Assembly (NCBI GenBank): GCA_041497675.1
Contig: JBGQGY010000113.1
Coordinates: 1-11,810, forward strand
Source: a bacterium
GTDB taxonomy: Bacteria > Sysuimicrobiota > Sysuimicrobiia > Sysuimicrobiales > Humicultoraceae
Direction of reading: 5' to 3'
DNA: 11,810 nucleotides
Made by a program: the position numbers. Shown here in pieces: positions 8,401 through 11,810 of the stretch (the stretch's first letter is position 1; each line of letters opens with the position of its first letter).

Positions 8401-11400
8401 GCGGCTTGGCGGTCTCCATCAGTTTCTGGACCGTGGCCGGGTCGATCAGGAAGAAGTCGGCCGGGAGCGCGGTCAGGAACTTCTCGGTCGTCGTCAGCGT
8501 GTTCTTGTCGATCCAGTCCTGGCTGGTCGCCGGGACCGCGACGGCGAAGGCGAGCATCAGGCCAAGCAGGGCGACTAAGGTCTTTTTCATCTTGGTTCCC
8601 TCCTTCGTGTGATTGGTCATTCTCCCTCACAGCCCGCGCTGCCCGGCGTAGACGAGCACCAGGCGCAGCGCGAGTCCTCCGATCAGGACCAGTGACGCCG
8701 AAAGTCGCGTCAGGCCGAACGTGGCATGACGCGTCTTGACTTCCACGATGCCGAGCGCCAACGGGACGACGATCCCGGCGGCGATCACCACCGGCCAGAA
8801 CGCCCACGCAAAGGTCCCCGTGATCAGCGCCGCGGCTGCGGCCTGTCCGGCCGCGGTGGACGTGGCCAGCCCAATCAGGTAGAGACCGACCAGCGTGAGT
8901 TCGACTGCTTCCACCGCGATCTCGCCGCGGACGAGCAGATGGTGCGCCGGCCCACCGGGGGCAACCATCAGCAGAAGCGCCGCGGCGGCCGACAACCCCG
9001 ACGCCAGGAAGAGTATCGGCAGAATCGGGCTGTTGAGCGCGGGCCGGGCCACCATCGTACCGAGCAGCACGCCGGTGTAGAGGCCAAGCGCCCCGCCCAA
9101 CACCAGGTTGATCCAGGCCAGCCGACGCATCCGCGGGCCGGCCCATCGCTCGACGCGTTGCAGCCACCGATGGAGCCGCGGGAAACGGCACACCCCCACG
9201 CGTGCGCGGATCGATAGGAGGGCGGGAATCGCCGCCAGCGAGGAGGTGAGGAGGATCGCCAGCAGGATCCAGGCCCCCCACGACATCGGGCTGCGCACGC
9301 GCAGGGTCAGGTAGAGCCAGAAGGGCGTCCACTTGCTGCCAAGATCGAGCCACAGCACGATCAGACCCAGGAGGATGGTCGGTGGCGTCAGTAACGTCGC
9401 CGCGCGTACGGCCGGCAAGAGCTCACGACGCCTCCCGGTCAGATGCGCCCACGACGCAAACATCAGCAGGCCGGCGGCCAGCCCGCCCAGGAAGAGGTAG
9501 ACGGCCACCGGCCATCCCCACAGGTGGAGGTGAGCGTTCAGCGCGCCGTCACGCAATTCGAGCACTGCGCACCTCCTCCAGACTCACGGCGCCGTTGAGG
9601 AAGAAGAACTTGGGTTTCGTCCCCAGGTCGGGTCGGTCGACCTCGATCTTCTTGGCCGAGGCGAGCGTCTTGTTGATCGGGCTGTTGGCATCATCGAGGT
9701 CGCCGAAGACCAGCGCACGGGTCGGGCAGACTTCGACGCACGCAGGCTCGCGGCCGCGGGCGATCCGGTGGTCGCACAGCGTGCACTTGTCGACGAACCC
9801 ACGCGGGTGCGGGTAGCGCATGCCGTAGGGGCAGGCCGACACGCAGGCGCGGCAGCCGATGCAGATGTTGTAGTCGACCAGGCAGACCTTGTCATCGTTG
9901 ACATAGGTCGCGCCGGTTGGGCAGACGTCGACGCACGGCGGTTTCTCGCAGTGGTAGCACTGCATGTGCAGAAACATCAGGCGCAGGTTGCCTTCGTCGC
10001 CGACCGCCACCTCGCCGACCCGTCGCCGCAGGTAGCCTTCGGGCACGTCGTTCTCAATCGCGCAGGCAACGGCGCACGCCTCGCACCCGATGCACCGGTC
10101 GAGATCAACCGCCATCCCGTAGCGCGCCACGGCTAGGCCTCCTGTCCCTGCCGCGCCGATCCGGGACGCGCGCGCCCCGTCGGTTGCAGACGCACGAAGT
10201 TCACCCGCAGGCCGGCACCGCCGCTGATGGGATCCAGCGCGTACCGGGTCTGCAGCGCCGTGTCGCTCGCGCCCTTCTTGTGCGCGCGGCGCATACCCGG
10301 GGCATCGTGGCCAAAGCCGTGCACCAGGTAGACGCAGTCCTTGCGGATGCGCGCGGTAGCGCGGACCTTCACGGGGCCGCTGGCCGCGTTGTCCTGGTTC
10401 ACGAGCATGACGCGGTCCCCGGAGACCAGCCCCAGACGCGCGGCGATCGTCCGGTTGACCCAGACCTCGTTCTCGTCCATGAGACGCGTCAGCACCGGAT
10501 TGTTCTGCGTCCGGCCGAACGTGTGCACCGGCGCGCGGCCGTAGAGCAGGCGGAAGTGGCCCTCGGGCGGTTCGGCGACCGCTGTGTACCGCGGCAGCGG
10601 GTCGTGCCCGGTCTTCGCGAGTTCCTCGCAGTAGATCAGGATCTTGCCGTTTTGGGTCGGGAATGGCGACTTGCCCTTCCAGTCATCGAGATATGGCTTG
10701 CCCTTCTGGATGCTCACCCCGGCCTTCCTCATGTCAGCCAGGTTGAGGCCGACGGAGTTGAGCCGCTGTTCCAGATACTCCTCAATCGTCTTCCAGGGGA
10801 AGTACTGCTCGAGTCCCAGCCGCAGACCGAGTTCGCGCGCGATCCACCAGCCAGGTTTCGTGTCGTACATCGGCCGCACGACCGGCTGGCGCAGGGCGAT
10901 GAATGGTCGCTTGTGCGGGATCACGATCAGATCGTCGTACCGCTCGAGGTACGTGCACTCCGGGAGCACAACATCGGCCCACCGGATGTGGTCCTGCGGC
11001 AAAATGTCGATGGCGACGGAGAAGTCCAGCGCCTGCAGCGCTTTGCGGGTGCGCGCCGGGTTGGGCAGCGAGTGGAACAGGTTGACGGCGTAGGCGACCA
11101 ACCCCTTGATCGGGTACGGCTCGCCGGTGATCATCGGCTCGATCAATTCCTGGATCGCGACCCCACCGCGCAGGAACGTCTTGCGGGCACCGTCGGCCCT
11201 GGGCTTTCTTCCCGCGGGGACCTCCGGACCGGAGGTCGTCGGGCCCGCTCAGCCACCCGCCTCGGACCCGATTGGGAAGGGCGGCAGCGGGTACTCTTCG
11301 ATGTAGGGCGACTCGGCGATGTAGAGGCCGCCTTGCCTTCCCCAGTTACCCAGCAGGATGTTGACGAGGTACACCGCGCGCATCCGCTGCGTGTCGTTGC

Positions 11401-11810
11401 CGTACCAGACGACGTGTCTGCCGGGGACCAGCACTGCCCGCGGCCGCACGCGCGCCATCTCCCGTGCGATCTCGGCAATCTCATCGGCCGGGAGTTCCGT
11501 GATCTGCGCGGCCCACTGCGGCGTGAAAGGCTTCACGTGCGCCGCGAGTTTCTCGAACCCGTCCGTGTAACGAGCAATGTATTCGTGGTCATAGAGGTTT
11601 TCGGTAACCAAAACGTGCATCCACGCTAACAACAGTGCTGTGTCGGTGCCCGGTTTGATCGGGAGGTAGTGGTCGGCCTTCGAGGCTACCGTCGAAAACC
11701 GTGGATCCACGACCACGACCTTTGCGCCACGGGCACGCGCCGCCGCGAAGTCCTGCATCATCGTGTTGTGGGCGTTCTCGCCGATGTGCGTGCCCAGCAG
11801 GACGATGTAG

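Follow-up and report, generated by a model that had tools for sequence, protein, structure and literature searches.

A UGA codon read as selenocysteine in the glycine-rich loop of a Thermus-type polysulfide reductase catalytic subunit: a comparative analysis

Described relatives and the psr operon

The closest described system to the locus analysed here is the polysulfide reductase PsrABC of Thermus thermophilus (PDB entries 2VPW, 2VPX, 2VPY and 2VPZ), which belongs to the same enzyme family and clade; its PsrA has the loop too, it works with PsrB and PsrC partners of the same kind, and a Cys occupies the molybdenum-ligand position. Its structure has reportedly been known since 2008 (Jormakka and colleagues). 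Where the Thermus protein has Cys388, the PsrA of the present genome has selenocysteine (Sec), and no role is known to have been assigned to Cys388. The mechanism of Psr is still described without substrate, according to a paper on Shewanella Psr (PMC12949373).

Two further groups of enzymes bear on this locus. The Sec-containing formate and formylmethanofuran dehydrogenases (FdhA/FdnG/FdhH and FwdB) have the Mo/W-bisPGD superfamily fold in common with PsrA (Z 31–33) and, like psrA, an in-frame UGA with a downstream SECIS element. Sec is, to our knowledge, known in this superfamily only as a metal ligand. In PsrA the ligand is a Cys, and ~215 residues separate it from the downstream Sec, which sits in a loop that the FdhA/FwdB type lacks. 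In the latter type the Sec that ligates the metal belongs to a U-H-x-P motif (PMC13188914, Table 1), and Wells et al. (2020), whose search covered the Fwd and Fdh lineages, report no Sec outside the ligand position (PMC7331816). The second group is represented by MccSep/ExtKL of Geobacter sulfurreducens, a multihaem periplasmic polysulfide reductase with five c-type haems, in which the metal has a Cys ligand, while a second residue, a conformationally mobile Sec, is indispensable and has been proposed as the group that attacks the substrate (PMC13510729, 2026). This logic of a Cys ligand and a mobile Sec is the one that we propose for PsrA, although the two enzymes are unrelated in fold, cofactor and sequence, and the mechanism has experimental support in MccSep but is inferred for PsrA. 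Mammalian thioredoxin reductase carries a C-terminal Gly-Cys-Sec-Gly on a mobile segment. It was likened to MccSep by the MccSep authors (PMC13510729), and SelD has an N-terminal Gly-rich loop with Sec or Cys (PMC13188914). Both the thioredoxin reductase arm and the SelD loop offer a Gly-flanked, mobile Sec/Cys that shuttles chalcogen or electrons to a fixed redox centre, a likeness to the PsrA loop that is conceptual, the folds being unrelated.

A periplasmic sulfur-binding partner is also known for Psr. In Wolinella succinogenes, Sud, a rhodanese-like periplasmic polysulfide-binding protein, presents the substrate to Psr, and in Nautilia the gene for a Sud homologue lies away from psrABC (PMC2628731). 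In the present genome, by contrast, the operon gene directly following psrC codes for a rhodanese with a putative signal peptide, and this gene tracks the loop-bearing clade. The window, by which we mean the whole stretch of 11,810 nucleotides analysed, contains the following genes of interest:

10133..11809, minus strand: psrA, catalytic Mo-bisPGD subunit (C-terminal part), 558 codons including one Sec codon, stop TAG at 10133-10135
9549..10130, minus strand: psrB, four-cluster ferredoxin subunit, starting 3 nt past the psrA stop and ending at an ordinary TGA
8627..9565, minus strand: psrC, NrfD-type membrane quinol subunit, ending at an ordinary TGA
8138..8620, minus strand: single-domain rhodanese, the fourth operon gene, likely start Met at 8590
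6343..8088, plus strand: MoeA-MobB fusion for molybdenum cofactor and MGD synthesis, adjoining the operon on the opposite strand

The genome-wide survey's note had joined two gene calls into a single gene for the catalytic subunit of a PsrABC-type reductase, and the frame, the database match and the domain boundaries on which it relied were all reproduced. On translation, psrA (10133-11809, minus strand) has a single internal stop, the TGA at 11249-11251, and stays in the same frame with no other stop over its 558 codons. By phmmer, residues 1-549 of the fragment match residues 202-749 of the T. thermophilus chain 2vpw_A (E 1.5e-251, ~70% identity over 549 residues), placing U187 of the fragment opposite Cys388 of 2VPW, in AAGGCSGP. 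The Pfam Molybdopterin domain (PF00384, 5.9e-25) covers residues 1-328 and so runs across the TGA, and Molydop_binding (PF01568, 1.6e-11) covers residues 419-534. In addition, an AF2 model of the orthologue from a related genome (G001, 81% identical) superposed onto 2vpw_A with a Z value of 49.0 and an rmsd of 1.8 Å over 701 of 734 residues. Because the NCBIfam PhsA model gave 371.5 bits against a cut-off of 694, psrA is not a PhsA equivalog. These data show that the gene encodes a PsrABC-type catalytic subunit of the Thermus type.

The order of the psr genes is the same in three related genomes (G001, G030 and G026). The N-terminus of the rhodanese resembles a signal peptide, and its active-site loop reads C-A-I-G-H-R-G; in a tally over related genes with short flanks (≤2 kb), a rhodanese gene was found near 26 of 48 loop-bearing loci versus one of 38 loop-lacking loci. 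The name of the homologue and the linked rhodanese gene suggest that the substrate is probably polysulfide, or thiosulfate.

Decoding of the in-frame UGA

Three features of psrA are central to the reading of its internal UGA:

11249..11251, minus strand: Sec codon of psrA, the in-frame TGA, U187 of the fragment in GSEAGG-U-AGP (translation and alignment)
11219..11237, minus strand: SECIS-like hairpin with an 8-bp stem, 5' arm GACCUCCG, apical loop GUC and 3' arm CGGAGGUC (bSECIS rule scan)
11201..11278, minus strand: coding region of the Gly-rich loop particular to this clade, PIGSEAGG-U-AGPTTSGPEVPAGRKP, an insertion with PPFP on one side and RADG on the other

Orthologues of psrA occur in five of the 33 other genomes of the family (79–81% identity), and the earlier count of three with TGA and two with Cys at the same codon was obtained again, the codon being TGA in G001, G003 and G030 and TGT in G026 and G002. 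Extending the comparison to 86 loci, we found the GG[C/U] loop, with the motif GG-U/C-(A/S/G), in 48, all of the Thermus-type PsrA clade; the other 38, which are Psr/Phs-like and more distant, lack it. The description of this Cys as conserved thus stands within the loop-bearing Thermus-type clade but does not extend across all Psr/Phs enzymes. Among 45 distinct loop-bearing genes, the codon was TGA in 16 and Cys (TGC or TGT) in 29, and no other residue was seen. The TGA forms came from Sysuimicrobiota, Chloroflexota and one metagenome-assembled genome labelled Anaeromyxobacteraceae. The Sec form, noted at first in the family alone, occurs under no fewer than three phylum-level labels, and the database protein clusters that represent it number at least 117. 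Recurrence of TGA at the same codon in genes from several phyla is more than a chance event.

The machinery required for such decoding is present. The tRNA-Sec (anticodon TCA; C24:29512-29607, as in the survey's note), selA (C24:23715-25061) and selB (C24:25097-26962) were all located on contig C24, and selD, which has a TGA of its own, lies at C39:15011-15934. A selB gene scoring above the cut-off was found in this genome, in all five family genomes with an orthologue, in nine of ten other genomes with a TGA form and in two of five genomes with a Cys form; it was not found in one TGA genome (that holding locus L082), whose completeness is not known. These findings bear on the reading that the TGA specifies some other amino acid, whether because the code has been altered or because a near-cognate tRNA reads through it. 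A reassigned code would likewise give an in-frame TGA and a continuing frame, but TGA is the ordinary stop of psrB, psrC and five other genes checked in the window, psrA has TGA at this one codon only, and the genome has a G+C content of 66% together with the tRNA-Sec, selA, selB and selD, which makes this reading highly improbable.

Upstream of these considerations stands the possibility that the TGA is a true stop, giving either two polypeptides (an N-terminal one of ~391 residues and a restarted C-terminal piece) or a pseudogene. Public gene callers annotate the gene in this way: 117 of 120 listed database proteins stop exactly at ...GG, which tells us that the gene calls are cut at the UGA, and three of them are identical to loci examined here up to the TGA. 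Also in its favour, a GTG or TTG codon lies 9–10 codons past the TGA, behind a GGAGG-like stretch, in six of the 11 Chloroflexi-type genes. However, in the other five Chloroflexi-type genes and in the five Sysuimicrobiota-type genes the first in-frame start is 18–41 codons downstream, and the codons between the TGA and that start are conserved as protein, including RADG and FLRG. Over the 40 codons after the UGA in the 11 Chloroflexi-type genes, pairwise comparison gave 725 synonymous versus 378 nonsynonymous differing codons. The Pfam domain and the alignment with 2VPW are uninterrupted across the codon, which alternates with Cys only; SECIS-like hairpins go with the TGA forms; the genome has the Sec machinery; and independent decay would not strike one codon in 16 genomes. 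We consider a true stop very improbable, if slightly less so than a reassigned codon.

The hairpin was examined against the published bSECIS rules, namely a loop of 3–9 nt with G in its first two positions, a stem of 4–16 bp, a distance of 16–37 nt from the UGA and an energy of at most −7.5 kcal/mol (PMC13188914). The psrA hairpin, which begins 11 nt 3' of the UGA, with its loop 19 nt after the UGA and an energy of −12.7 kcal/mol, satisfies all four constraints. In the strict scan 15 of 16 TGA forms passed, whereas only three of 29 Cys forms did; one of these three is G026, which is nested within the Sec clade (the psrA gene tree carries no support values), and the TGA form that did not pass, G003, has a G·A mismatch in the stem. 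Stems of the Sysuimicrobiota type are paired in 97.5% of cells, with two of the eight pairs changed on both sides, and those of the Chloroflexi type show almost no covariation because five of the seven pairs never vary. The earlier description of a hairpin starting 11 nt after the UGA stands, but the fold energy of the whole region is unremarkable: the 91-nt fold around the UGA is not exceptional for a G+C-rich sequence (z −1.3, with 20 of 200 shuffles folding equally well). Free-form best-hairpin energies averaged −14.0 kcal/mol for TGA forms versus −11.8 kcal/mol for Cys forms (one-sided p 0.04), a weak separation among related sequences, and we used the rule-based scan instead. An Rfam search around the UGA gave no family match (best E values 1.1 and 7.6), although Rfam may lack a bacterial SECIS model.

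Taken at the comparative level, these data show that the UGA at 11249-11251 is decoded as Sec, as judged from sequence. Split gene, pseudogene and recoding were each rejected, on the conservation past the TGA, the alternation with Cys, the hairpins, the Sec machinery and the use of TGA as a stop. The Sec forms of PsrA are consequently a case of systematic mis-annotation as truncated genes, the at least 117 protein clusters concerned being ~395 residues long and named 'molybdopterin-dependent oxidoreductase' or 'polysulfide reductase chain A'. Sulfur respiration in Chloroflexota and in hot-spring lineages may therefore be undercounted by those metabolic surveys that depend on a full-length PsrA.

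The molybdenum ligand and the position of the selenocysteine

The N-terminus of psrA, with the ligand of this genome's copy, is cut off at the end of the window and was recovered from an overlapping contig:

Contig C68, 750 down to 1, minus strand: psrA N-terminus, first ~205 codons, with an exact 136-nt overlap with the window end

This contig encodes a Tat motif (TRRDFL), the four FS0 Cys residues and the Cys in SVSMCTTPRE, so that the ligand residue, unseen at the contig end, has now been found as a Cys. The PsrABC-type reductase is thus predicted to be exported by the Tat route. In the G001 orthologue, C177 aligns with residue 173 of the 2VPW chain, and the position of Thermus Cys173, which we take to be the Mo ligand, is occupied by Cys in every one of the 34 full-length relatives aligned as well as on contig C68; our literature search found no paper naming Cys173 as the Mo ligand of polysulfide reductase. 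The PsrA Sec lies ~215 residues downstream of this Cys position, and, rather than the U-H-x-P metal-ligand motif of the FdhA/FwdB type, its context is GG-U. The claim that the Sec is not the Mo ligand is borne out by these alignments, from which the ligand of PsrA is predicted to be a Cys. Apart from the Mo ligand and the four FS0 ligands, the Cys/Sec loop position is the only invariant Cys position across the 34 full-length sequences.

In the literature searched, no Sec other than the metal ligand was reported for this enzyme family. An inventory from 2026 that covers 119 families of prokaryotic selenoproteins does not include Sec-PsrA (PMC13188914), although supplementary tables of selenoproteome surveys may have it under another name. 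Papers that deal with both Sec and Psr, on deep-sea Chloroflexi, KSB1, Nautilia, aquifer Chloroflexi and the MopB superfamily, mention Sec only for formate dehydrogenases or sel genes. Sec-PsrA would therefore represent a new Sec position in the Mo/W-bisPGD superfamily and would add a widespread family to the inventory of 119.

A proposed role for the loop residue

A Sec/Cys pair away from the metal ligand naturally flags a residue as reactive, and Cys388 of Thermus PsrA is marked by such a pair, which points to an unrecognized catalytic residue in PsrA. From this pair, the invariance of the position and the operon-linked rhodanese, we infer that the Cys/Sec residue may be catalytic and may carry sulfane sulfur.

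The SelA/SelB/SelD/tRNA-Sec system is taken to decode the UGA, directed by the hairpin 11 nt downstream. In the mechanism that we propose, the loop selenolate or thiolate would serve as a second active-site chalcogen that attacks an S–S bond of polysulfide; alternatively, in the first step the loop chalcogen would take over a persulfide from the periplasmic rhodanese of the operon. The loop Sec would then bear the sulfane sulfur as an Se–S adduct and present it to the Mo/Cys173 centre, where two electrons passed from menaquinol via PsrC and PsrB would arrive and sulfide would be released. This scheme presumes a loop close to the Mo funnel, sulfur-carrier chemistry, a hand-over from the rhodanese and the identity of the substrate; the loop may instead be remote from the funnel. 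Residues 389-415 of the AF2-modelled G001 orthologue, the counterpart of the loop, have a pLDDT below 50 and are predicted as coil; the count of 734 modelled residues in 2vpw_A suggests an ordered loop in the 2VPW crystal.

The main competitor to this mechanism accepts the Sec as real but not as the substrate-handling nucleophile, assigning it instead to protection or repair of the Mo centre, to a redox switch or funnel lid, to a selenenylsulfide with a partner, or to tuning of the substrate range (thiosulfate, tetrathionate, selenite). All of the evidence for Sec decoding fits such roles equally. As 38 of the 86 loci lack the loop, the Cys/Sec is not essential to the chemistry of the whole Psr/Phs family, and Mo alone suffices for its basic chemistry. 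According to the Shewanella Psr paper, the substrate specificity of Psr/Phs is unexplained and Psr has been solved only without substrate (PMC12949373). Against these roles, the 34 full-length sequences offer no second invariant Cys for an internal redox pair, and the operon-linked rhodanese and the precedent of MccSep favour sulfur transfer. Sec is also costly to make and is usually found, and retained, at catalytic sites. We regard a role other than that of nucleophile as possible but rather unlikely, and the best joint explanation, with a probability of roughly 0.55, is a Sec-decoded Thermus-type PsrA in which the loop chalcogen carries sulfane sulfur to Mo. The fuller proposition, in which Thermus-type Psr would have a two-chalcogen active site, from the loop Sec/Cys to Mo-Cys173, and its Sec version would form a large overlooked selenoprotein family, we put forward more tentatively, at a little under even odds. 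If true, the two-chalcogen PsrA would be the molybdenum counterpart of the haem enzyme MccSep.

Of the five Mo-bisPGD genes in this genome, psrA alone is interrupted by an in-frame TGA, and no Sec-containing formate dehydrogenase was found. Two Sec genes were seen in it, those for PsrA and SelD.

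One psrA gene with an in-frame TGA

The genome-wide survey's note had described a single PsrA gene read through an in-frame TGA that stands opposite Cys388 of the Thermus thermophilus enzyme (PDB 2VPW), and both statements were recovered in our analysis.

Features of the psr operon (window coordinates, except where contig C68 of the same assembly is named)
C68:750 down to 1, minus strand: psrA N-terminus, about 205 first codons, overlapping with the window
10133-11809, minus strand: psrA C-terminal part, a 558-codon single frame with stop TAG at 10133-10135
11219-11237, minus strand: SECIS-like hairpin of psrA, 8-bp stem, loop GUC starting 19 nt past the UGA
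9549-10130, minus strand: psrB, directly after psrA
8627-9565, minus strand: psrC, directly after psrA-psrB
8138-8620, minus strand: single-domain rhodanese, in fourth place in the operon; its N-terminus resembles a signal peptide and its active-site loop reads C-x-x-G-x-R-G

The psrA frame is interrupted only by the TGA at 11249-11251 (minus strand), and the read-through protein matches 2vpw_A with an E-value of 1.5e-251 (residues 1-549 on 202-749), the TGA being aligned with Cys388 in the motif AAGGCSGP. In addition, the Pfam domain Molybdopterin (1-328) spans the TGA and is followed by Molydop_binding (419-534); the top NCBIfam match is thiosulfate reductase PhsA, under its cut-off.

Although psrA is cut by the contig end, window positions 11675-11810 and C68:1-136 form an exact 136-nt overlap, indicating that the two contigs join inside the gene. 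The C68 part encodes a twin-arginine motif, the four FS0-cluster cysteines and a Cys in SVSMCTTPRE. The equivalent Cys of the full-length orthologue from family genome G001 (C177) aligns with residue 173 of the 2VPW chain, which we take to be the Mo ligand; in PsrA of the window's genome the ligand position is thus occupied by Cys, with the Sec approximately 215 residues further downstream. The note had assigned the ligand to SMCTTPRE with this genome's own copy unseen and held that the Sec is not the Mo ligand; the copy is now located on C68, and the alignment agrees with both readings.

Conservation of the Sec/Cys position and the SECIS-like hairpins

Orthologues of psrA (79-81% identity) were present in five of 33 other genomes of the family (Humicultoraceae according to the note), with TGA at this codon in three and TGT in two, matching the earlier counts of TGA and Cys forms. 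When the scan was widened, with each species represented by a single genome, 126 of 146 pattern matches proved to be relatives; the top 80 of these 126 were retained and, with the six family loci, made up the 86 loci examined. The codon belongs to a Gly-rich loop, an insertion of the Thermus-type PsrA clade, which was found with GG and then Cys or TGA in 48 loci and was wholly absent from 38, all of 45-53% identity. After removal of L024, L025 and L026, which are identical to family loci, 45 distinct loop-bearing genes were left, with TGA in 16, TGC or TGT in 29 and a codon for any other residue in none. By record label, the TGA forms derive from Sysuimicrobiota-type (five) and Chloroflexota (ten) sources and one MAG labelled Anaeromyxobacteraceae. 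Two Chloroflexi assemblies each hold two Sec psrA paralogues on separate contigs (L038 with L047 and L040 with L053).

When hairpins were scanned by published bSECIS constraints, as stated in a figure legend of PMC13188914, 15 of the 16 TGA forms passed compared with three of the 29 Cys forms; the sole failing TGA form is that of G003, whose stem is identical but for a single G.A mismatch. In the Sysuimicrobiota-type stem 97.5% of cells are paired and two of the eight pairs are changed on both sides. The hairpin of the Chloroflexi-type genes differs: its core is GAGGC/GCCUC, and its loop, for example GGUC or CGUGUU, lies 23-24 nt past the UGA. This core shows no variation and is thus uninformative on covariation; as read off the alignment, third-codon positions are invariant within the stem and variable just outside it. 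Discrimination was poor for the whole-region fold around the UGA (z -1.3), and weak for unconstrained best-hairpin energy between TGA and Cys forms (P=0.04, among related sequences).

A FastTree phylogeny (LG+gamma; 45 loop-bearing sequences and six outgroups, 51 in all; Sec column masked; no support values printed) placed the Sec forms in two clades, Sysuimicrobiota-type and Chloroflexi-type, with an all-Cys actinobacterial clade between them. Cys forms occur within both, G026 and G002 in one and L059, L032 and L063 in the other, as repeated switching between Sec and Cys would produce. The G026 gene (L021), nested in its Sec clade, is among the three passing Cys forms and looks like a recent Sec-to-Cys switch. 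A perfect SECIS-like hairpin is still present 19 nt past its TGT. The two different SECIS designs are compatible with either one or two origins of Sec.

Decoding of the UGA and standing of the finding

The Sec machinery was located in this genome: tRNA-Sec (anticodon TCA) lies at C24:29512-29607, and selA adjoins selB on the same contig. The selD gene (C39:15011-15934) has an in-frame TGA of its own, so SelD is probably also a selenoprotein. Since TGA is the ordinary stop of psrB, psrC and further window genes, a reassigned genetic code was ruled out. Above-cut-off selB was found in all five gene-bearing family genomes, nine of ten other TGA genomes and two of the five Cys genomes tested. On contig C4 of G030, selB (50122-51987) is approximately 5 kb upstream of the Sec psrA (56865-58511) on the same strand.

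Over the 40 codons past the UGA, pairwise comparison of 11 Chloroflexi-type genes gave 1097 identical, 725 synonymous and 378 nonsynonymous codons, and RADG and FLRG downstream of the UGA are invariant. Six of these genes (L040, L044, L047, L050, L052 and L060) carry a GGAGG-like, purine-rich 5' hairpin arm and then, 9-10 codons past the TGA, an in-frame GTG or TTG, an arrangement that might in principle allow a restart and that is absent from the group's other five. Taking machinery, Sec/Cys pair, frame, SECIS and selB together, we consider it very probable (about 0.95) that the psrA TGA is a true Sec codon.

Six Pfam matches, two of them to psrA, correspond to five Mo-bisPGD genes in the genome, of which only psrA has an in-frame TGA. 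The Sec trait usually rests on formate dehydrogenase, and no Sec-type formate dehydrogenase was seen among these five genes of the whole genome.

When the 391 residues that precede the Sec codon in the G001 orthologue were searched against a collection of 5.8 billion proteins, 391 clusters reached E≤1e-60 among the 8000 candidates scored. Among the matches listed, 117 of 120 clusters end in ...GG, and none of the proteins carries a selenoprotein label. The 117 represent genes called only as far as the Sec codon. Contig ends do not account for the truncation, since many of the contigs are long (up to 418 kb). Three listed proteins are exact N-terminal parts of L044, L055 and L058, where TGA is the next codon.

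Full-text literature searches, with subscription journals outside their coverage, returned no report of Sec in any Psr/Phs enzyme. Wells et al. 2020 (PMC7331816) report no Sec outside the ligand position, from a search of the Fwd and Fdh lineages only. Table 1 of a review from May 2026 (PMC13188914) comprises 119 prokaryotic selenoprotein families or subfamilies; its superfamily entries are FdhA and FwdB only, Sec PsrA being absent, and the relevant words are absent from a 2022 review. The enzyme and the recoding system are known, and the Sec position is new, which implies a new functional residue. All testable factual statements of the survey's note were reproduced; the finding is real, has good support at the comparative level and extends considerably beyond its first description.

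The loop residue and a proposed role in sulfur transfer

When 34 full-length sequences were aligned, cysteine was invariant nowhere but at the four FS0 ligands, the Mo-ligand position and the loop position. PsrA thus lacks a conserved residue with which the loop position could form an internal redox pair. Glycines flank the loop Sec/Cys. An AF2 model of the G001 orthologue (mean pLDDT 80.5) puts the loop residue in a long coil, with 389-415 below 50; it superimposes on 2vpw_A (Z 49.0; 701 of the 734 modelled residues aligned). That these 734 residues of the 765-residue chain are modelled, aligned from 30, suggests an ordered loop in the crystal.

The operon rhodanese looks periplasmic, and G001, G030 and G026 share the gene order psrA-psrB-psrC-rhodanese. 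A rhodanese match (flanks ≤2 kb) accompanies 26 of 48 loop-bearing loci compared with one of 38 loop-lacking loci, an association and not a statistical test because the loci are related.

In Wolinella, polysulfide sulfur is presented to Psr by Sud, according to PMC2628731. In the haem polysulfide reductase MccSep, as described in PMC13510729 (2026), a Cys ligates the metal and the substrate is attacked by a mobile Sec that is not a ligand, giving a Se-S-S(Cys) intermediate that the metal then reduces. From these precedents we propose an MccSep-like division of labour at the Mo centre of PsrA; the two would share the split between ligand Cys and mobile Sec, but the metal centre is haem in MccSep and Mo in PsrA. 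The loop selenolate would capture sulfane sulfur from polysulfide or a rhodanese persulfide and would then pass it to Mo/Cys173, the key premise being that the loop reaches the funnel, as we infer. This proposed mechanistic role of the loop Sec is plausible and directly testable.

Next to the psr operon, but on the plus strand, lies a MoeA-MobB fusion gene (6343-8088; molybdenum insertion and MGD synthesis), a homologue of which follows the rhodanese gene in G026 (L105). Three genes at 3115-6340 (minus strand) encode a 2-oxoacid:ferredoxin oxidoreductase (POR gamma/delta-like fusion, POR_N/PFOR_II and TPP-binding subunit), after which come genes for a universal stress protein and an ABC ATPase, and the beginning of one for citrate synthase.
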